This document shows positions 5,698 to 15,754 of a stretch of DNA of 64,000 nt, piece by piece. A program made the translations under genes and the position numbers. Under the pieces are notes generated by a model, which was not told where the DNA came from, did not search any database, and saw nothing but the letters and a program-made list of their open reading frames with translations. Every line of letters begins with the position of its first letter. Position 1 is the stretch's first letter. This stretch comes from an uncultured delta proteobacterium (GTDB lineage Bacteria > Desulfobacterota > Binatia > UBA9968): assembly GCA_963728565.1 (NCBI GenBank), contig CAVSLC010000006.1, positions 56,940 to 120,939 on the forward strand. Direction: 5' to 3'.

Positions 5698-6033
5698 CTA
5701 CCGAGCGGATCCCGGGGAAAAGTATTCAACCCGGCTCACCGCAACGTCCGAGACGAACATCACTCCCGTATAGCGGTCGAACAGAGGTTTCAAGCCGGCC
5801 AAAATCGGCTCGACTTTCTCAGGCACGACCACTGACATCAACATGATGATGCTGTCCATCTCGTTGAACATCGGATGGGCCGTGTGAAAACCGTGGTGCC
5901 CTTTTCCGGAAATGTTGTGGATGATGGTATACCCAGTGGCCTTGTTGTCGAGCAAGTCGGTTGCGAATTTTAAGTGCTCTCCCTGGATGATAATCCTGAT
6001 TTCCTTCATCGGATGAAGCGTGAGATTGCTCAT
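5698..6033 (-). CDS. PII-like protein (SbtB/CPII-like) at the end of the dab operon
   Basis: 111 aa, MKEIRIII...GYTIIHNISGKGHHG...GVMFVSDVAVSR PII fold; directly downstream of dabA with an AGGAG RBS. Confidence 0.85.
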   Translation of the reverse strand: MSNLTLHPMKEIRIIIQGEHLKFATDLLDNKATGYTIIHNISGKGHHGFHTAHPMFNEMDSIIMLMSVVVPEKVEPILAGLKPLFDRYTGVMFVSDVAVSRVEYFSPGSAR

Positions 6034-6045
6034 GCTGATCTCCTT

Positions 6046-9000
6046 TCAAACGAATCTCTGGGCACGAGATGAACAGTTTGGGTTCACAGCCTGCCATCCT
6101 TCTTTGGGAACGTACCGGTAAGCTAGCTGCTCTTCAGGCTCGATGGCGATGAGATATAGCCATTGGTTATCGTACAGTCGCTTCAAATGGCGTTGGTTGC
6201 GGATGATTTTATCGATTCTTTCCCTGGGCGCCTCCACCAGGATCACGAGCCGCATCGGCTCATGATAGGGCCGCATTCCATTCATGACCGTCTGCCAGGC
6301 CAGGCCGGTGCGCAGATCGCTCTGGGGACCGGACATAATCCCAAAGCGGCCGACTACGTTGTGGTAGATTTTGCTGCCGCTACCGTAGCCCTCCGGGTCC
6401 ACTGCGGAAAAGTAATGCTCCATGTTGATCCATTGTCCGACGATCTGCGGTCCGGTCATCACGACCTCGAGCAAGCGGCCGTCCGGATCTTCATGGTAAT
6501 CGTAAGAATGCAGAAAGGCTCGGGCGTCAAGATTGATGCCGCGGGTCAAAGCGCGGCGCCCAATGATAAATGCGGCATTGCCGGATAGCCCCCATTCGGG
6601 CCGAACCTGGCTCCAGTCAGCGCTTCGGCGGTGCACCGCGCGCCAGGCTTTGGAAGCGCCCGGGCTTACCTTGATCTCGGGAAACCGAGCGCATCGCTCT
6701 TGGCGGTTGCGCGATCCCGCCGATTCAAGATCGCGGACTAGTTGGAGCAGATCCTTGCGGTGAGTGGGGGGGAGGTCTTCCAGATCGAAGAGATCGATGT
6801 CATCGGTGGTGGTATTGTGTTGTCCGGCGACGAAGTAGGTGTCCTGCGGAATGGCAATGCCGTTCTTGGCGAGCTGCTCCCGCACCAGAGGTTTGTTCGC
6901 CATGATCGCCAGCACCCTCGCGTTGGGCTTGCCCGGGTTGCCGCCACAGGCGCCGCAATCGAGAGCCGCTTCGAAAGGGTTGTTCTCGGAGGTGCTGCCA
7001 TGGCCGCAGAAAAGCACGAGACGGGCGAAGTTCCGCGTCAGGCCCATCATTCTTAGCGCGGTTTCCACGGTGAAGACTTGCTCGCTGAGAGTGAACCCGG
7101 TCCGGGTGATACGCTCCATACGAGCGAATGACGCGCCCGGGTTGATGCCGTGGTTTCGCCTGAGATCTTCAACAAAGGCCGCTTCTTCTTCGCGGGAAAG
7201 CGCGGTGGAGCGCGCCTGCGGCGAGGGTTCCCCGGCGCTCTCTCCGTAGAGCGCCCGCCGACGCAGAAACTCCAAGCGTTCCAGCGATAGATTCAGATGG
7301 CGCTCGCCGAAATTTTCCTGCAGCGCGCGGCGGGTAATGGCGCGCTGTTCCGCCGCCAGCATTTCCTCTACCTCTTCGCGTGACAGTTTGTCTACAGTCA
7401 AAGTTGTCGCCACCGGCGGGACCAGCTTGCGCCGAAGCCAGCTCATGACGTTTCTGTACCAGGTTGGCGAAACGGTCTTGCCGACAAAGGGCAGGCTGTA
7501 AAACCAACCCAGCGACTCCACCATGACATACGGGGTGACGACATTTTCCTTAAGATCGTAGAGCAGGGTGTGTCCGGTTTCGAGAAGTTTTTCGCGGTGC
7601 CGGCGTCTGAATAGATACTGGCCTTGATAGGTGCGGGGAATCTCGCGGACCAGATTTTTGGTCTTCATGATTACCGGAAACTGATCGGTTTCATGATCGC
7701 TGCCGAGGCCCTGGTAGCGGATGAAGACGGCGAAAAAACCTGCGAAGCCGAAGGTCTCGTAATCGCCGATCGCTTCCAAGTGACGCCGAATCGACTCCGA
7801 ACGGACGTCGATGCAAAACACCGCCTGCGCTTGGTGTCGGACTTTTATTTCGTCCTGCAACTCGCCGTGTGCCGCGGCTGGCGCAGATGGGCTTCGCCCG
7901 GAAGCGACTTCACTCCCTGGATCGAGGTTAACGGGGAGCTTGCCCAGCAGTTCTTCCTGGTATCCCGCCTCGAACGCCTTGAGCCATATGGGCCCATGGT
8001 CCGCTTCAGGAAATCCATCGATCCACTCGAGCAGTGTCAGCAGGTTGCCGGGCTCGCTTTGCGTCAGAATGCTGGAATCATACCCCAGAGCTTGAGCGAG
8101 CGCCGACAACCGCCACGCCGCGACGACAGCCGCCGGGCTGTCCGCCTGTGCTTGGACGGGAGCTTTAGTAAATAAATTCTCGCGCCGCTGCATCTCAGTC
8201 GATATTGCGTCGATGTTGCCGTCGATGCCGAGGGCTTCACGACAGGCTTTTTGCACCAATTCACGTTCATACCAAACTCGCACCGCAAGATACTGCGCCA
8301 GATCGATCGGGTAGGCGAGCTGCCATTCATATTCACTTTGATCGGCGCGCCATTTGATGAAGCCCGCCCATCCCGATAGAGCCGCGAGGTGAAGCGAAAG
8401 ATAATCCTGCCGGGCATCGGCCGGAATGCCAAGGGTTGCTAGACTTTCGAGCAGCGCGTCTTCGGGCTGCTCCGGCAATCGGGCCAGCTTCTCGCGACTG
8501 TTTTCGATTGCTCCGGGAGACCATTCCTGTTGAGCGAGCAATCTCCAGGCGGCGTAGAAACCCTTCTCACGGCCCGGCATGGGCCAGGTGGCATGACCTT
8601 CGTCCAAAAACGCCTCGCACCATTTAACCAATTCACGATTGATTTGCTCGCCGATTTGTGTGCCCAGGGTGCGATCGCACCAGCTGCCCAGCATCAGAGT
8701 TCGACCGAGATCTCCCTGCTCTGCGCTCTCCCGCCAGCTCTGCGGCGGTTTCGCAGCCGATGTCAGATGACTTGCCAGCGATTTGATCGCGTTGCGCTCG
8801 GGATGGTGCTCGAGCAGAGTGGCGAAACTGTCATCAGGAGGAGGAGAAAGATCTTGCAGCATGCGGGCGCGAAGGACGGCCCCGAGAGTTACGTCATGAG
8901 CGCCTAATTGGACGTGCCGGTTTTCTGCGCGCGATTTTAGCGCGGCATCGAGTTGATCGGGCAGAATCCGACCCGTGCGGAAATAATCGCGAAAAACTTC

Positions 9001-9216
9001 AACGGACAGATACCCCTTGCCGTCGAGCAATCGCTGGGCCCGAGAAATGGCCTCTTCAAAATGGAGATACTCCATGCCGTGTAGCGGATTGTGGTGCACG
9101 AATGTGCGCATGGGCCAGTAATCGGCAATGACCTCGCTCGCCAGCAGGATCAACGCTCGGAGCTCACTCCGCTGGGATTCGCTGTACTGTGTTGCTGCCA
9201 TTTGCGTCACAGTCAT
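6046..9216 (-). CDS. dabA: DabA (DUF2309), beta-carbonic-anhydrase-like subunit of the DAB inorganic carbon pump
   Basis: WPMRTFVHHNPL; Zn-ligand motifs FCIDVRSE, CGHGS and LDCGACGG; DWSQVRPEWGL and HEPMRL; start at the ATGA overlap 9216 (alternative 9201). Confidence 0.93.
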   Translation of the reverse strand: MTVTQMAATQYSESQRSELRALILLASEVIADYWPMRTFVHHNPLHGMEYLHFEEAISRAQRLLDGKGYLSVEVFRDYFRTGRILPDQLDAALKSRAENRHVQLGAHDVTLGAVLRARMLQDLSPPPDDSFATLLEHHPERNAIKSLASHLTSAAKPPQSWRESAEQGDLGRTLMLGSWCDRTLGTQIGEQINRELVKWCEAFLDEGHATWPMPGREKGFYAAWRLLAQQEWSPGAIENSREKLARLPEQPEDALLESLATLGIPADARQDYLSLHLAALSGWAGFIKWRADQSEYEWQLAYPIDLAQYLAVRVWYERELVQKACREALGIDGNIDAISTEMQRRENLFTKAPVQAQADSPAAVVAAWRLSALAQALGYDSSILTQSEPGNLLTLLEWIDGFPEADHGPIWLKAFEAGYQEELLGKLPVNLDPGSEVASGRSPSAPAAAHGELQDEIKVRHQAQAVFCIDVRSESIRRHLEAIGDYETFGFAGFFAVFIRYQGLGSDHETDQFPVIMKTKNLVREIPRTYQGQYLFRRRHREKLLETGHTLLYDLKENVVTPYVMVESLGWFYSLPFVGKTVSPTWYRNVMSWLRRKLVPPVATTLTVDKLSREEVEEMLAAEQRAITRRALQENFGERHLNLSLERLEFLRRRALYGESAGEPSPQARSTALSREEEAAFVEDLRRNHGINPGASFARMERITRTGFTLSEQVFTVETALRMMGLTRNFARLVLFCGHGSTSENNPFEAALDCGACGGNPGKPNARVLAIMANKPLVREQLAKNGIAIPQDTYFVAGQHNTTTDDIDLFDLEDLPPTHRKDLLQLVRDLESAGSRNRQERCARFPEIKVSPGASKAWRAVHRRSADWSQVRPEWGLSGNAAFIIGRRALTRGINLDARAFLHSYDYHEDPDGRLLEVVMTGPQIVGQWINMEHYFSAVDPEGYGSGSKIYHNVVGRFGIMSGPQSDLRTGLAWQTVMNGMRPYHEPMRLVILVEAPRERIDKIIRNQRHLKRLYDNQWLYLIAIEPEEQLAYRYVPKEGWQAVNPNCSSRAQRFV

Positions 9217-11787
9217 CTCCATGGCATGCGAGTGAAGTGCGCCAGTGGAACGGTTTCGAGCCAATCAAGCGGCATGGCGCCGAGGGCGATTAGAATCAGC
9301 AGCAGAAGCGCGAACACCGCAACCTCACTTGTTTGGAAGTCGTTATAGCGAATATCGGAGCGATGCGGACCAAACAGAAGCCGCTGCATCATTCTGAACA
9401 GATACCACGATGCCAAGAACCAGGTGAATAGAATCACCATCAGTCCCCACGTAACCGTAGCCGAAGCCTGCAGCAACATCGCCACATACGCGGAAAAAAC
9501 GCCAAACGGAAGCAGGCCTACGGCGGCCATAACCAACAAAGAAAACACGGTAGCAAAGCGGGGCATCGGCGCTGCCAAACCGTGCATGCCGTGTAAAGTC
9601 AAATCGCCGTACCGCCCACGCACGCGCTGCCAAGCAAGGAGCAGTCCGGCGGAAATCAATATTGTCGTGACCAAGTAGATGATTGATTGAGCAGCCAGGG
9701 TTCCTGTAATGCCGAGACTCCACCACAGAGCTGAAAAGAAAGCTACGCCGGCATAGGCCACAAGTTGCGGAACTGTTGTTTGACCCAATGCTTTGAGCGA
9801 TCCATACACCGCGCCGAATAGGGCCAGCAACGCTCACGGCACGAAGAGTCTCGACCGGGAGATCCGGCATCAACTGAGCGATCCCGAACACTCCCGCCGC
9901 AGGCAGCAGCATGGCCAGCGCGATTGCTTGATATCCTGGCCGGCGCGTGAGCGCAGCCACGTAGATTCCGTGCAGGGGAAAGAGTGGCAGCAGAATAGCA
10001 ATCAAGATGAATAACCCGATTTCCGCCGGCTGAGCCGGCAGCCGCGGGCCGAAGGCTAGTGCCGAGCCAATGGCGATCAAAGCCGCCACATACGGGAAGA
10101 CTCTGCTCGCATTCAGGCGATCTACCTCACGTCTAAAGAGTTGAGTGAATCTTATGGCTAGCGCATCGAGGTAGAGCCGATTCATCAAAAGCAGGTAAAT
10201 ACGAACCCGTAAGTTATTCACCCATTCCGGCATGCCGATCGTTCGCCCATGGCTCTCCGCATAAAGCAGAATCCAGCCAAGAATGATGACCAAGGCAAAG
10301 GCCGATACCAAGACATCGAACAATAGGACCGGTAAAGCGCCGGCTCGAAAGTGGGCAGCTACCTCGCCCGGCGCCGGAAATAAGAAGTGCGTGAAGCTTT
10401 CCGCTGCCAGCAGATAGGTGACGACCACAAGGAAGAGCGTAAAGAGCATGCTCATAGCCACCTTCCAAGTAGCGACCGCCCGCAGGCGATATAGTGTCAG
10501 GATGGCTTGGGAAGAGGTGGCCCAGCCGAAGAAGAGAAAGATCGTCGTTCCCTGTGAATCTCCCAATGGAATGCGCAGGATGCCATGAGCCGCCAGCAAG
10601 ATGATCAACGGAAGGATCAGGGTTGCAAGAAATCCGGTGAGCCACGTTAGAATCGAAAATTGTCTTCTCTCCGCCCTCTCGATTTTGGGAGGCAGTCTAG
10701 GTTTTTGACGAGCGGCATGAATCACGTAGCCGCAATTTAAAAATATGGTGCCTTTAAACAGGCCATGGGCGATTAAGTGAAAGATTGCCAGGCCGTAGGC
10801 GCCCAGACCGCATTCCATGATCATAAAGCCCATCTGTCCAATGGTTGAGTAGCCCAGGGTCTTCTTGATGTCGTTTTGAACCAGCATCATGGAAGAACCC
10901 AGAAGAGCGGTGAGCATGCCGACGGCGAAGACCAGATGGAGCACCGCAGGATTCAGGTCATAGAGCGGCGCCAGCCGGGTCAAGAGAAAACCGCCGGCGT
11001 TGATGATTCCGGCGTGCAGCAGGGCGGTGACCGGTGTCGGCGCGTACAGATAATCGGGCAGCCACATGTGCAATGGAAATTGCGCCGACTTGGTCATGGC
11101 GCCGATGAAAATCAATAAAGTGACGGCGGTGTCGGCGCGCATCTCGAAGCTACCGCCGGGCCCGAGAAAGAGCGAGCTTTGGACCTCGGCGGCGCGCAAA
11201 AAGAGCTGCTGAAAATCCAAGCTGCCGTACGTGCGATACGCGAGCACGATCGCGGCGAGAAAGGCAACGTCGCCGATGCGCTGCATAACGAATGTTCTAA
11301 AGGCGCCCCGGACCGTTAGTGGATGGCTGTGGTTGTGAGACAGGAGCGGCACGAGCCAACTCAGCAGTTGCCAGAATATGAAGAGCATTAGTAGATTGGA
11401 GCTCGACACCATGCCGAACAGAACGAAACCGGTAAAAGCCAGTAAGCTGTGAAAGCGCGTATATCCGCGCTCCTGTTGCATGTAGCGGATCGAAAATAGA
11501 TGGATCAGGCTGCTGATTGCGGCGATATGCACGAGCATCACGGACGAAAGTCGGTCAATGTGCAAACCGAATTGTAAGATGTTGTCGTGCCAGGGTGATA
11601 AATGAATGGTTTGTGGCCCGCGAGTGGTTACTTCGTAAAGGACCAGCAGCGAGAGCGCGAAAGAAATCACTTCCGCCGCCACGCCTATCCGGACAGCCTT
11701 AGGGCCGAGCGTGCGTCCCAGAAGGCCGATGATCAACCCCGCCGCCAACGGCAAAAGGAGTATCAACGCAGGATAATAAGCGAGCAT
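9213..11787 (-). CDS. dabB: DabB, NuoL/ND5-like membrane subunit of DAB, with one frameshift near 9830
   Basis: IDRLSSVM, KSAQFPLHMWLPD..YAPTPVTALLHAG, DIKKTLGYSTIGQMG and HLIAHGLFKG; hydrophobic reading continues in ORF 9213..9830 after a one-base shift. Confidence 0.88.
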
Positions 11788-11872
11788 GATCTTGGTGTAG
11801 AACCTGTCAATGCATCATATGACGATAAAGATCCTCGTCGCGTTTAAGAAATAGCTGGCCGCGCCGCAAGCC

Positions 11873-11902
11873 AAAAAAAGCCGGCCCTTTGAAGAGCCGG
11901 CT
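11873..11902 (-). terminator. Intrinsic terminator inside the dabB 5' leader
   Basis: Minus strand AGCCGGCTCT-TCAA-AGGGCCGGCT stem (one G-U pair) running into a 7-U tract, about 85 nt upstream of the dabB ATG. Confidence 0.85.
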
Positions 11903-11947
11903 ACCCCATACCGATCCCAACTGCCTGCTTCAGGCTATCGGTAGAAT
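11873..11947 (-). ncRNA. Candidate riboswitch or attenuator leader of the dab operon
   Basis: UACCGAU/AUCGGUA stem enclosing a GCCUG-AAG-CAGGC hairpin and an unpaired AGUUGGG, followed immediately by the terminator. Confidence 0.6.
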
Positions 11948-11953
11948 GTTTTT

Positions 11954-11982
11954 ACCATAACGTATGACTTTAGAGCAGTAAA
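11954..11982 (-). promoter_or_regulatory. Putative sigma70 promoter for the dab leader
   Basis: Minus strand TTTACT-N17-TATGGT, ending about 6 nt before the structured leader. Confidence 0.5.
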
Positions 11983-12326
11983 GCCATTGCCATCCGCTCA
12001 TGAGCCGAATAGCAGCCGCCTTTTTTTCACCAGGCAGCGAAACTGTGCTGATCAGCAAACCGGATGTCCGTCAGCTTCCTTGCCGTCCGCCAGCAGCGAT
12101 GCGAAAGACCTGGACACTCTTGACGGCTTAGTTTGCGCGCGGAAATCGTAACGGTGACCGTTAGAGGGTTCTCACAAGCTTGCTGTGCCGGATGCTGAAG
12201 AGTTTAGTTCAAATGAAAGCGCCATCAGACGTGCCGTGAAGAATGCCAAGTCGACGGACTATGTCTATCCCCGTTCTCGCTGGAGAGGTTCGGCCATGCC
12301 GACGCGCTGGATCGATGAAGCAAGTG

Positions 12327-12370
12327 CGTTCAAGCCGTTCAAACAGTTCAAATCGTTCAAAACGTTTTGA
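12327..12370. repeat. 9-bp tandem repeat, 4-5 copies of (C/A)GTTCAA(A/G)N
   Basis: CGTTCAAGC CGTTCAAAC AGTTCAAAT CGTTCAAAA CGTTTTGA. Confidence 0.8.
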
Positions 12371-12796
12371 AGGATGGCGTGACCGCAGCGGTGGCGGCGC
12401 ACCGGTACCTTACGAATATTTGAATTGAGCCGGGTCAGTCATTGCTCCGCGGCTGCTCATCTATTCCAACTCCGCTTAGGCAGGCTGCCTGCGACTATCG
12501 TCATAGAATTTAGAACCGATAACGACTAGTGTTGCGTTTCCGCGGATATTGGGTTCTTTTCTTCTCCAAGCATCAGCGAATCAAGATGCAGCGATCTGTG
12601 GGAAACGGCCGGCGAACATCAACTGCGGGATCCCGCGGATCCGGTCCATGTTTGTCCATCCCGATGATTCGACCTCACGGTTGCGGCGCATGGATGACTT
12701 GCATATAACGGACGAACAACCTGAAAAAAATCTTTATGCCATTTTTTGTATGAGAGTCTCACACAAACACCTGGTCACTTAGGAGGATGCAGTCCA

Positions 12797-13333
12797 ATGG
12801 CAATGCTCAAGATGCTTGACCCAAGAGCCGCTGTAAATCCCGAAGAGCGGCCTCTGATGCGGGGGTTGGATTCGCTGGAAGGGAAGGTGATCGGCATAAT
12901 CGACAATGGCCAATCGAATTCCACGGCGATGTTTCAAGAATTGGCGAAGTTGATGCGGGAAAAATTTCAAACAGCGGAAGTAGTTTTTAAAACGAAGCCT
13001 TCGCATATGCAGGGAGCGCCCAAACCGATTATTGAGGAATTTGTCAGCCGTTGTGATGCCGTGATCACCGGGTTGGGAGCTTGAGGGTCGTGCACGTCGT
13101 GGAGTGTCCACGACGCCATCGAGCTGCAAAAAAAGGGAAAGCCGACAGTGACTCTGTGTCAATCGATTTTCATGGAGCTGGCCAAGACCGAAGCGAAGTT
13201 CTTTGGGCTCGCTACGCTTCCATTGGTGGAAATTCCTCATCATCCAAGCGGCGGCGCCAGGGCCGGCGAGCATCGCGCCGATGCCGAAGGAGCGGTGGAT
13301 TCGGTGCGCCAGCGGCTGGTGCTGGCGAAATAG
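12797..13333 (+). CDS. UGSC-family selenoprotein (178 aa; in-frame TGA at 13082-13084 read as Sec)
   Basis: AGGAGG RBS and ATG 12797; the frame reads ...AVITGLGA-TGA-GSCTSWSVHDAIELQKKGKPTVTLC...IPHHP to TAG 13333; U-x-x-C redox motif; SECIS-like hairpin downstream. Confidence 0.88.
13095..13115 (+). promoter_or_regulatory. Bacterial SECIS-like hairpin
   Basis: Perfect 9-bp stem CGTCGTGGA/TCCACGACG with a GTG loop, starting at the 11th nt after the UGA. Confidence 0.7.
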
Positions 13334-13517
13334 AGGCCAGCACTGCCAGGTCAAACATAGCTGGATAAGAACATCGACGGAGTAATGGAGATGATTGTAA
13401 AAGCCCTCAGGGCGGTCCCCTAGCTCAATCCTTCGCCGCAAGGCGGAAGGAAGAAGACGCCAACCGCGAACACCCGGGCACAAGACCGCTCGTAAGCAGG
13501 TACTTAGGAGTTTGCTG

Positions 13518-14585
13518 ATGACGACCCTCACCTCACCAATCATTGAAGTCGAAGACAGTTGGGAAGCGGCCAACGATTGGTTCTGCCGTGAAAAGCTGAG
13601 CGATGGTTTACCGATCGTACCACCGACTCCGGAGCGCGTGACGAGAATGCTCGAGGGCGCCGGCCGTGATCCGCAGGAGGTGATCGGCCTCATCCCGCCA
13701 AAGTGGGCGCCGGCAAGCATAGAAAAGCTGGCCATCAACGCCGTTATGGCCGGATGCCTGCCGGAATACTTGCCGGTGATTATTGCCGCTGTCGAAGCAA
13801 TCTGCGAGCCTCGGTTCAATCTCTACGGCGTGCAGGCAACCACCGGGTACGTCGGTCCGGCGCTGCTTCTCAACGGTCCGATCAGGACCGCGCTCAACGT
13901 CAATTGCGACTCCGGCGTGTTCGGGCCTGGTTTTCGAGCGAACGCGACCATCGGCCGCGCGATTCGCTTGATACTCATCACGGTCGGCGGAGGTTATCCC
14001 GGCGACACCGACCGATCGACCTTCGGCTGGCCCGGCAAGTACACCATGTGCTTCGGTGAAAATCAGGAGAAAAGCCCCTGGGAGCCGTATCACGTGGAAA
14101 TGGGTTTCAAGCCCGATGACAGCACCGTGACCGTTTTCGGCATCAATGGTTTCCTGCCGATTCACACTGCCGGCAATCGCGGCGAGCAGGCGCTCTCCTC
14201 ATTGGCCGAAGTCTTAAAGATGCACCATGGCGTGAGCCATCTCGATGTCGGCAGCTTCGGAGGCGGAACGCCGCTCATCGGCCTCGGCATCGAAGACGCG
14301 GAGATCATGGCTCGGGACGGCATCACCAAGAAGCAAGTTAAGGATTATCTCTGGGAGCATGCGTCGTTGAACTTTACTGAAGTGCCCGCACGGCGCAAGG
14401 GACATAAAGGTGATGATGAGCTGCTGCGCGAATCGCCAAACGTCACGCCGGACGGGGTCGTTCACCTGTCGACCAAAGCCGAAGATATTATGGTCGTGGT
14501 GCTCGGCGGCAAGCACCGCCATTCGGTCTTCCTGCCGATGTGGACCGGCCGGAATACTTTGTCGGTGATTAAACCGATTCGATGA
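13518..14585 (+). CDS. Conserved uncharacterised partner of UGSC proteins (DGLPIVPPT family)
   Basis: SDGLPIVPPTPERV, EKLAINAVMAGC.PEY, GFRANATIGRA.RL and GKYTMCFGEN...SPW; AGGAG RBS. Confidence 0.75.
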   Translation: MTTLTSPIIEVEDSWEAANDWFCREKLSDGLPIVPPTPERVTRMLEGAGRDPQEVIGLIPPKWAPASIEKLAINAVMAGCLPEYLPVIIAAVEAICEPRFNLYGVQATTGYVGPALLLNGPIRTALNVNCDSGVFGPGFRANATIGRAIRLILITVGGGYPGDTDRSTFGWPGKYTMCFGENQEKSPWEPYHVEMGFKPDDSTVTVFGINGFLPIHTAGNRGEQALSSLAEVLKMHHGVSHLDVGSFGGGTPLIGLGIEDAEIMARDGITKKQVKDYLWEHASLNFTEVPARRKGHKGDDELLRESPNVTPDGVVHLSTKAEDIMVVVLGGKHRHSVFLPMWTGRNTLSVIKPIR

Positions 14586-14758: not shown

Positions 14759-15754
14759 ATGAATCGAAAAACATCCGTATGCGCCATAACTGTTTTTTTT
14801 CTTTGCATCGGTTGGCGCGCCATGGCGCAGGACAAACTTAGAATGGGGTTGAGCTCGGTGAGCGGTTTGCACACCGCTGTCTGGGTGGCTGAAACAAAAG
14901 GACTCTTTCGCAAACATGGCATCGATCCTGAAGTGATCGTCACCGGCCAGGGTGGGACCGCCGGCATCAGTGCGCTCATCGCCAACGACGTGCAGATGGT
15001 GAATTCAGCCGGTGATGTCTTGGTCGCAGCTTCGTTGCGCGGCGGCGATACGGTCATGGTCGCCAGTGTTGTCAACAAAGGACTGCAACGCCTTATTACC
15101 AGGCCGGACATAAAGACGCCCGCGGAGCTGAAGGGAAAGCGGGTTGGCGTCACTCGCATCGGCGCGGTTTCCCATTCGGTTCTGCTCATGATGCTGCAGC
15201 GTTGGAAGATGAGCGTGAATGATGTCCAGGTCCTTCAACTCGGTTCCTCGCCGAGTATGCTGGCGAGCCTCGACAAGGGAGGTATCGAAGGAGCCGTGGT
15301 GACGATTCCTTCGATGTTCGTCGCCGAAGATCGCGGCTATAGAGTGTTGCTCGACATGGCGGATACGGATATTTACTACCTGCACACGATGGTCGCGACA
15401 ACGCGCCAATACATCAAAAACAATCGCGACAAAGTGGTGCGATTTCTCAAGGGTTACGTCGAAGGAATTGCGTTCGTCAAGCATAACAAGCAGGAGAGTT
15501 TGGACATCGTCAAGAAGAAGCTTCGCATCGGTCCCGAGCAGGAAAAAAACCTGGAACGCTCCATAGATCTGTTAATCGCGAAATACTACGAGTCTGTGCC
15601 ATATCCGTCCTTGCGCGGCGTCGAAACGGTGCTCGGCTTCATCGAAAAGGACAATCCGAAAGCCAAAGGCGCGGACCCTAAAATGTTTGTCGATGATAGC
15701 CTGCTGCGCGAGGTCGAAGCGAGCGGCTTCGTAAAAACACTTTACCAACGTTAG
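14759..15754 (+). CDS. SsuA/THI5-like solute-binding protein
   Basis: Signal peptide, VWVAETKGLFRKHGI, ELKGKRVGV, C-terminal FVDDSLLREVEASGF. Confidence 0.85.
   Translation: MNRKTSVCAITVFFLCIGWRAMAQDKLRMGLSSVSGLHTAVWVAETKGLFRKHGIDPEVIVTGQGGTAGISALIANDVQMVNSAGDVLVAASLRGGDTVMVASVVNKGLQRLITRPDIKTPAELKGKRVGVTRIGAVSHSVLLMMLQRWKMSVNDVQVLQLGSSPSMLASLDKGGIEGAVVTIPSMFVAEDRGYRVLLDMADTDIYYLHTMVATTRQYIKNNRDKVVRFLKGYVEGIAFVKHNKQESLDIVKKKLRIGPEQEKNLERSIDLLIAKYYESVPYPSLRGVETVLGFIEKDNPKAKGADPKMFVDDSLLREVEASGFVKTLYQR

Follow-up and report, generated by a model that had tools for sequence, protein, structure and literature searches.

A terminator-containing leader RNA upstream of dabB in Binatia: a putative transcription attenuator belonging to a new RNA class

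Many autotrophs and heterotrophs, pathogens included, obtain CO2 and bicarbonate through DAB/Mps pumps, the control of whose expression is poorly understood. In a 64,000-nucleotide (nt) stretch of genome from an uncultured bacterium of the Binatia (hereafter ‘the window’), a dabB-dabA operon on the minus strand is preceded by a short segment that a preliminary description, made from the sequence alone, took for a riboswitch-like regulatory leader with a promoter, a small folded RNA and an intrinsic terminator. Does this segment control the pump and, if it does, what would it respond to? On balance, the comparisons below incline us towards the view that the element is a cis-acting transcription attenuator and a derived member of a new RNA class found in one Binatia family.

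The basic anatomy is as described. The promoter-like arrangement TTTACT-N17-TATGGT is present on the minus strand with the hexamers and spacing given, and a strong intrinsic terminator (T1) lies 85 nt before the dabB ATG. This hexamer pair is not on the list of our promoter scan, because its score falls below the threshold of 9/12. The −10 hexamer is kept as TATGGT or TTTGGT in 6/6 aligned genomes, and relatives carry CTTGACA at the −35 position, which by homology points to an alternative weak −35 box in the window, 5 nt downstream of TTTACT. RNAfold reproduced T1 and the two proposed stems of the preceding hairpin, P1 and P2, with a minimum free energy (MFE) of −31.7 kcal/mol, as compared with −23.7 ± 2.9 kcal/mol for dinucleotide shuffles (n = 200; z = −2.71), 2 of which fold equally well. 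T1, with 10 pairs (7 of them G-C), ranked first in a terminator scan of positions 9000..14000, a region in which terminator-like sites show no excess (9, versus 6.2 ± 2.5 in shuffles). We consider the leader more than a chance arrangement mainly because it is conserved upstream of dabB in many genomes and metagenome contigs.

By BLAST, the leader block is single-copy in its own genome. In a search of 41 related genomes it was found in G005 (92% identity), G004 (86%), G006 (83%), G007 (76%) and G023 (74%), the last of which represents a different genus from that of the window. The matches in G006, G007 and G023 are confined to the promoter-RNA-terminator block, the flanks having diverged, and a dabB-like open reading frame (ORF) follows the block in all of the matched genomes. 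Two covariance models, R1 (built from 8 sequences) and R2, extended this picture to 79 dabB loci from genomes, with one genome per species, and to 80 dabB loci gathered from metagenomes by a scan for the DabB N-terminus. R1 matched 13 of the 79 genome loci, always just upstream of dabB and on the same strand, and across 90 genomes of the same Binatia family it found 10 with one match each, all at dabB loci. R2, which scores the window copy at 47.5 bits, gave 14 matches in the genome set (13 directly upstream of dabB and one 1.9 kb upstream) and matched 50 of the 80 metagenome loci; every metagenome match is on the dabB strand, and those listed end at most about 250 nt from the start of the dabB match. 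The expectation that the motif would recur upstream of dab homologues was thus borne out. A trans-acting small RNA gene would likewise have a promoter-like site and a terminator, but its position would not depend on one particular neighbour; here every dabB-type copy lies directly upstream of dabB and is co-oriented with it, which speaks against such a gene. As a separate observation, six dabB loci that lack the leader (L018, L019, L021, L022, L036 and L057) share another block about 150-250 nt upstream (..ttgcgtt..N..gctgctatttnttc..), which may be a binding site of another regulator.

The 47 distinct dabB leaders fall into four types that differ in the part between promoter and terminator. 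Far-type leaders (L168, L167, L181, L029, L174, L171, L153 and L177) form a rod, in which a stem P1* (AUAGCCCGA paired with UCGGGCUGU) is followed by an AG/GG internal loop and a stem P2 (GAUUCC...GGRAUC, with a variable tip), and the terminator comes immediately after. Mid-type leaders, such as those of G023 and L016, retain P2 and have two constant mismatches in P1*. Near-type leaders are those of the window’s clade (8 sequences); they have lost P1* and the family-wide P2, and the strings GAUAGCCUGAAG and GGGAUCGGU are re-paired into the P1 and P2 of the preliminary description. Finally, group B (L023, L026, L027, L028 and relatives) shares the promoter, the 5′ end and the terminator, with an unrelated GC-rich hairpin between them.

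In an alignment of 27 far- and mid-type sequences and one near-type sequence (L014), the structure P1*+P2+T1 is 87.1% paired and has double-sided changes in 7 pairs (3.9 in shuffles), with a covariation score that none of 500 shuffles reached. Pairing in the T1 stem amounts to 98.8% in near relatives; in 27 further relatives it is 92.5%, with switches between G-C and A-U pairs. Within the 8 near-type sequences, P1 is 96% paired with wobble changes only, and P2 is 77.5% paired with one switch between C-G and G-C. The P1/P2 fold stands as a description of the window, with which RNAfold agrees; it is restricted to the window’s clade, and the fold conserved across the family is a different one, namely a rod in which 9 base pairs lead through an internal loop (AG/AG or AG/GG) into a second stem whose tip varies. 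The window copy is thus a derived member.

The dabB leaders are not the only members. When R2 was used to scan the Binatia family, many matches appeared away from dabB, including in genomes without DabA. These define a paralogous group, about 105 nt in length, with the design ..GAU-GACCCGA-AG-[GGUU..AACC]-AG-UCGGGUC-AU-AGGCCGAC..terminator. This structure is 93.3% paired in 17 sequences, with 9 double-sided pairs versus 4.2 in shuffles and a score that was reached in 0/500 shuffles. A covariance model of the group, R3, detected it in 39 of the 90 genomes of the same Binatia family, and neither R3 nor R2 found it in 143 genomes of other families in a class-level sample. With filters off, R3 matches only the dabB leader in the window, at 16.2 bits, and it scores the far-type dabB leader of L029 at 53.8 bits; the dabB leaders and the paralogues are therefore one class, of which the window copy is the most divergent. 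On these sequence grounds the leader belongs to an RNA class, found in one Binatia family, for which we know of no earlier description.

The window’s own genome carries a second copy (G000:C13:417871-417978, equivalent to L205 1501-1608 and L226 372-479), which R3 scores at 68.7 bits. It sits between a gene for an MpsC-like protein and one for a 283-amino-acid (aa) orphan ABC (ATP-binding cassette) permease, and it is followed by a second part, a second terminator (T2) and a strong Shine-Dalgarno sequence. This layout is general in the paralogous copies, in which T1 is followed by a second conserved structured part, T2 (GGCCAGC...GCUGGCC and a U run), a strong Shine-Dalgarno sequence and the start codon; T2 is also common to the mid-type dabB leaders. 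We note that the stretch between T1 and T2 in the paralogues (L205 1609-1700 and 15 further loci) contains a GCC/GGC helix enclosing a covarying hairpin (GCCCY/RGGGC), with compensatory change in 9 of 21 predicted pairs. This stretch, which is missing from the dabB leaders, may be a second sensor.

Genes downstream of the paralogous copies were classified in 31 cases. The first is an orphan ABC permease (PF00528) in 15, including the copy in the window’s genome, a tiny membrane peptide of the MEKWxPIFWI type in 7 or of the MNSTTYII type in 4, a CRP-like regulator in 2, and PurC in 1; in 1 the next item is another copy of the element and in 1 the gene is unclear. The tiny peptides are 34-54 aa long (L183, L184, L186, L189 and L220 for the MEKWxPIFWI type; L216, L217, L219 and L222 for the MNSTTYII type), and they are followed by genes for MpsC (PF10057), TerC, Usp, a SAICAR-synthetase-like protein (PurC) and two Band 7 proteins. 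In G084 the series goes on with UPF0182 and then, after a gap of about 920 nt, dabB-dabA; in G044, dabB-dabA has a copy of the element 1.9 kb upstream, in the same orientation. The presence of related elements before several other operons is typical of a regulatory RNA class. A 560-aa ORF adjoining the orphan permease gene (L226 2300-3982, G000:C13) encodes a domain like that of the type VI secretion system phospholipase Tle1 (PF09994, 5.9e-74).

How might such an element act? In the window an intrinsic terminator stands between the promoter-like site and the ORF, on the same strand, which is the defining arrangement of an attenuator. Transcription would start near 11945, at the promoter-like site, and the nascent RNA would first fold its 5′ hairpin, P1/P2 in the window and the nested P1*/P2 in most relatives. 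This hairpin would sequester GGGAUCGGU, so that the following segment folds as T1, and polymerase would stop and release an RNA of about 75-80 nt, the default OFF state. If the 5′ hairpin were prevented or opened, GAUCGGU could instead pair with GCCGG-UC to form an antiterminator (AT′), T1 would be blocked, and transcription would read through into dabB, dabA and the P-II family gene behind them.

Several results are consistent with this scheme. Full-length MFE structures contain the 5′ hairpin and the terminator in 16/16 sequences folded, which suggests that termination is the default. When the 3′ arm of T1 is removed from the window transcript, the MFE structure is AT′, which excludes both P1 and T1. 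The homologous pairing, GAUYGGU with the 5′ arm of T1, is 93.1% paired in 27 relatives, as compared with 16-48% for slid registers. The earlier proposal of pairings that compete with the terminator therefore has some support in its general form, with AT′ as the candidate; of its specific pairings, CUACC/GGUAG does not survive even in G005, the closest relative, which has GGACUAG there. Two further helices may form: an alternative register, GGUCGG/CCGACU (84% paired), and a 5′-flank helix, P0 (83.5% paired), neither with covariation. Furthermore, in the mid-type dabB leaders and the paralogues only 10-30 nt separate the end of T2 from the start codon or its Shine-Dalgarno sequence, which leaves no room for a promoter, so in these relatives the downstream gene must be read through. 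Soil metatranscriptome contigs from three studies (X16, X18 and X20) span T1 from inside dabB (11731 or 11768) to 11935-11960, and none continues past about 11960-11976. These contigs hint weakly at read-through transcripts and reveal neither transcript ends nor regulation; the RNA runs cover a small share of the stretch, and its uncovered parts are not informative.

The T2 region of some mid- and far-type leaders (L016 at about 470-520, L020 at about 140-200, L029 and L017) has a further property: a GGAG-like Shine-Dalgarno string lies in the T2 loop, and a mini-ORF of 4-15 codons (MLAFF..) begins at an AUG in the 3′ arm of T2 and stops a short way ahead of dabB, whose start, on reading the sequences, has no Shine-Dalgarno sequence of its own.

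A number of observations weigh against the window copy being an attenuator. The changes in AT′ are one-sided only (C/U opposite G, and G/A opposite U), with no double-sided covariation, and P1/P2 of the window does not rise above shuffles in the 8 near sequences. The putative sensor part of the dabB leaders is unstable, in that the window’s clade is without P1* and the family-wide P2 and the hairpin of group B is unrelated. The element was not found by R2 at 65 of the 79 genome dabB loci, nor at about 30 of the 80 metagenome loci; the leaderless loci belong mostly to more distant DabB clades. The contigs that bridge T1 come from relatives that are about 90-95% alike, and may be DNA carry-over. 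The promoter, the transcript ends and termination are all predicted, and the switching, the direction of control and any effector are inferred. Finally, T2 is decayed in the window, and the 85-nt spacer contains a conserved TATGAT-like box, so dabB could have a promoter of its own and the small RNA could be separate.

This last point leads to an explanation without any sensing in the window copy, which would be a small-RNA gene in its own right or else what is left, in decayed form, of an mpsC 3′ end and its terminator; it would now only insulate dabB, with dabB transcribed from its own promoter in the spacer. Such a unit, a promoter-like element with a strong terminator, would yield a discrete RNA of about 75-80 nt; moreover, the family hairpins, T2 and the neighbouring mpsC are all gone from the window’s clade, the TATGAT-like box about 30 nt before the ATG appears conserved by eye, and the region 11983..12778 is poor in ORFs, as would be expected after gene loss. 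This reading does not readily account for the 74-92% identity of the block across two genera while its flanks diverge, for P1 and AT′ being intact and mutually exclusive in 8/8 near relatives, or for the confinement of all 10 R1 matches in the family to dabB loci, and the contigs that cross T1 into dabB speak weakly against it as well. We regard this explanation as quite unlikely, and continue to favour a cis-acting attenuator.

If the element is an attenuator, the nature of its effector is the next question, and one clue is a gene. In 28 of the 31 paralogous copies, the −35 box (CTTGAC) of the element comes right after the end of a 125-aa MpsC-like ORF, and by tblastn an mpsC-like gene lies directly upstream of the leader, on the same strand, in 12 dabB loci, namely the far-type leaders examined (L029, L140, L153, L167, L168, L170, L171, L174, L177, L178 and L181) and L025. 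In 6 more dabB loci, where the leader is absent or matched only weakly, it is on the opposite strand, and tblastn did not find it beside the window, near-type or mid-type dabB leaders. (The far-type locus L168 also has a tRNA gene, at 111-182 and scoring 69.2 bits, immediately before its mpsC-like gene.) The ancestral cassette was thus mpsC, then the promoter and element, then the target gene; the window leader has lost its adjacent mpsC, its genome keeping a copy elsewhere. The preliminary description had reasoned that no upstream minus-strand gene needs T1. In the window this is correct, as the nearest minus-strand ORF of at least 50 aa (12779..13819, no Pfam match) is about 800 nt away; in the wider family, since an mpsC-like gene was ancestrally directly upstream, the terminator is not gene-less, and a protein effector becomes a serious alternative.

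Specifically, an MpsC-like protein could bind the hairpin or its strands and control T1 and T2, in cis in the cassettes and in trans on the window leader, whose genome has an mpsC-like gene beside its second copy of the element. Conservation of the protein is strong, with a mean column identity of 66% in 20 sequences, and the primary sequences GAUAGCCUGAAG and GGGAUCGGU are kept even where their pairing partners are gone. MpsC (PF10057) is not known to have been given a function in the time since the mps locus was first reported. In Staphylococcus aureus, passages of PMC6689103 report no growth phenotype for an mpsC deletion, which suggests that MpsC is not part of the pump itself. That MpsC binds RNA is hypothetical: its AlphaFold model is confident (predicted local distance difference test score, pLDDT, 92.2), but Foldseek found no significant relative in the PDB (best E-value 0.043, template-modelling scores of at most 0.46), and a PDB sequence search with the protein gave chance matches only. 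The window, near- and mid-type leaders also lack mpsC alongside, and the linkage could merely mean that the element consists of the 3′ end of mpsC and its terminator region. Protein-dependent antitermination by MpsC therefore seems to us unlikely as it stands, though it deserves attention.

Alternatively, the element could be a true riboswitch, in which read-through is set by a small ligand or ion (Na+, Li+, H+ or pH, HCO3− or CO2, Mn2+, or a metabolite of carbon limitation) that binds directly to the RNA. The attenuator anatomy with a covarying hairpin would fit, as would the occurrence of one RNA class before related operons (DAB pump, MpsC, TerC, the permease and the CRP-like regulator) and the tandem layout of part 1 with T1 and part 2 with T2, which resembles tandem riboswitches. 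In addition, expression of S. aureus mpsA is lower at 5% CO2, according to passages of PMC6689103, which suggests that DAB/Mps systems respond to a carbon signal. However, none of the known riboswitch families matches, the fold shared by the class is a plain rod in which we found neither a junction nor a pseudoknot, and the linkage to one protein gene is far tighter than is usual for riboswitches. The fold is also lost in the window’s clade and replaced in group B, both of which have kept the promoter, 5′ end and terminator; this middle part of the dabB leader has been replaced at least twice in evolution, which argues against a fixed ligand pocket in these copies. What remains of the riboswitch-like leader of the preliminary description is a conserved, structured, attenuator-like leader, with no known riboswitch family behind it and with a P1/P2 fold confined to one clade. 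We consider a true riboswitch doubtful. With regard to the effector as such, a small ligand or ion bound by the RNA would be not far from an even prospect, a protein, with the MpsC-like protein as prime suspect, somewhat less probable than that, and the small remainder falls to other effectors.

A broader and rather speculative possibility is that the elements and MpsC together form a regulatory system for inorganic-carbon and ion homeostasis, in which MpsC is a signal-responsive RNA-binding antiterminator that opens the tandem terminators. If so, it would act before DAB pumps, TerC, the orphan permease and the CRP-like regulator, and the dabB leader of the window would be a target controlled in trans. 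Either way, a family of roughly 100 natural variants with a terminator/antiterminator design and a linked candidate protein provides a testable handle on DAB regulation in the Binatia, an uncultured lineage widespread in soil, and gives the riboswitch field a new orphan class of regulatory RNA. As the window copy is derived, biochemistry should begin with ancestral-type members.

The coordinates of the leader and of the operon are collected in Table 1.

Table 1. Features of the dabB leader and the genes behind it (window coordinates)
Feature	Position	Strand	Properties and basis
−35-like hexamer TTTACT	11982..11977	minus	predicted promoter; read from sequence
−10-like hexamer TATGGT	11959..11954	minus	predicted; 17-nt spacer after TTTACT
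Hairpin domain P1+P2	11909..11943	minus	contains the family-wide conserved strings GAUAGCCUGAAG and GGGAUCGGU
P1, UACCGAU with AUCGGUA	11943..11937 with 11915..11909	minus	MFE fold; clade-specific
P2, GCCUG with CAGGC	11935..11931 with 11927..11923	minus	MFE fold; inside P1; clade-specific
Candidate antiterminator AT′, GAUCGGU with GCCGG-UC	11916..11910 with 11901..11894	minus	MFE of transcript without the T1 3′ arm
Intrinsic terminator T1, AGCCGGCUCUUCAAAGGGCCGGCU	stem-loop 11902..11879, U run to 11873	minus	10-bp stem, 4-nt loop, U7
T1-to-dabB spacer	11788..11872	minus	85 nt; read from sequence
GGCCAGC, leftover 5′ arm of T2	11860..11854	minus	alignment with G023; 3′ arm lost in the window
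TATGAT-like hexamer, candidate second −10 box	11819..11814	minus	about 30 nt before ATG; conservation (TATNAT) read by eye
dabB	9343..11787, ATG at 11787	minus	814 aa; PF00361 5.7e-51, PF00662 1.7e-13
dabA	6046..9264	minus	1072 aa as listed (start codon as listed); PF10070 DabA 3.4e-274
P-II family gene	5698..6033	minus	last of the apparent operon, directly after dabA; PF00543 6e-19

With a P-II-type signalling protein encoded in its operon, the DAB pump may be subject to a second level of control, after translation. Reading of the leader sequences gave no convincing leader peptide: an AUG within the −10 box opens a frame of 7 codons that is not conserved. A search of the window with ARAGORN for tRNA and tmRNA genes was negative. 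The core has a weak look-alike near 12500, also a repeat (D7), which was dropped because neither R2 nor unfiltered R3 matched it. The ORF-poor region upstream of the leader, about 800 nt long, has no Pfam matches and, by tblastn, no mpsC remnant; within it, three overlapping TTCAAAC(A/G)NT repeats with 9-nt spacing (family D1) occupy 12329-12366. Beyond it, two long ORFs overlap on opposite strands (12779-13819, minus, and 13512-14585, plus), neither with a Pfam family. They are followed on the plus strand by a gene for an NMT1/THI5-like substrate-binding protein of the nitrate/sulfonate/bicarbonate ABC type (14759-15754, PF09084), before which neither R2 nor R3 with filters off found an element, and then by enoyl-CoA hydratase and acyl-CoA dehydrogenase genes.

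It remains to compare the element with known systems. Models of the DUF1646 and nhaA motifs are present in Rfam, and the preliminary description had seen a resemblance to these Na+ and Li+ riboswitch classes. At gathering scores, Rfam gave 0 matches in the whole window, and with E-values up to 10 it gave nothing on the leader, the sole row in the local region being snR67 at 12409..12508 (13.2 bits versus a gathering score of 55), a chance match. With E-values up to 5, there was no match on the leaders of 10 ancestral-type dabB loci, where the tRNA of L168 is the only real row, and 9 paralogous loci, including the TerC-linked L189, gave only chance microRNA and long non-coding RNA rows. A Betaproteobacteria toxic small RNA model touching the ancestral-type loci was discarded as sub-threshold (23.9 versus 50 bits) and terminator-driven. 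Since neither the window nor its less derived relatives match, the leader is not a member of DUF1646 or nhaA-I, and the suggested kinship was abandoned. In a literature search limited to main texts we found no description of this RNA class; the supplementary gene lists of PMC9337991, PMC9646797 and PMC5737381 could bear on this.

The likeness to DUF1646, nhaA-I and nhaA-II is general: all are small leaders with an intrinsic terminator and simple hairpins, before genes related to cation transport. According to the main text of PMC9337991, the Na+ riboswitch is made up of a pair of hairpins, P1 and P2, whose conserved nucleotides lie in the loop of P2 and at the base of P1. Its hairpins stand side by side, whereas here P1* encloses P2 in one rod with a variable tip, and DUF2309, mps, NuoL, bicarbonate and TerC are absent from the main text of that paper (PMC9337991). 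In contrast to nhaA-I and nhaA-II, the genes downstream here are dabB, the permease, MpsC/TerC and others, and never nhaA in the rows examined. The yybP-ykoY Mn2+ riboswitch, which includes the pH-responsive alx leader, precedes TerC-family genes, as do some of the paralogous copies; its architecture and sequence are different, and it gave no Rfam match on the 9 paralogous loci.

HutP and PyrR govern protein-mediated leaders that choose between terminator and antiterminator. In these systems, as here, a small regulator gene comes before a terminator-containing RNA, followed by the targets, and terminator and antiterminator are set against each other. Unlike HutP and PyrR, MpsC is a hypothetical RNA-binding protein with no relation to either in sequence or fold, and the window copy has no adjacent regulator gene. 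The closest counterpart in gene content is the mpsABC locus of S. aureus, in which, as passages of PMC6689103 describe, the DabB and DabA homologues MpsA and MpsB are linked with MpsC and expression is CO2-responsive. There, mpsC is downstream, behind a weak terminator (PMC6689103); here, in 12 loci, it precedes dabB and is separated from it by a structured RNA.

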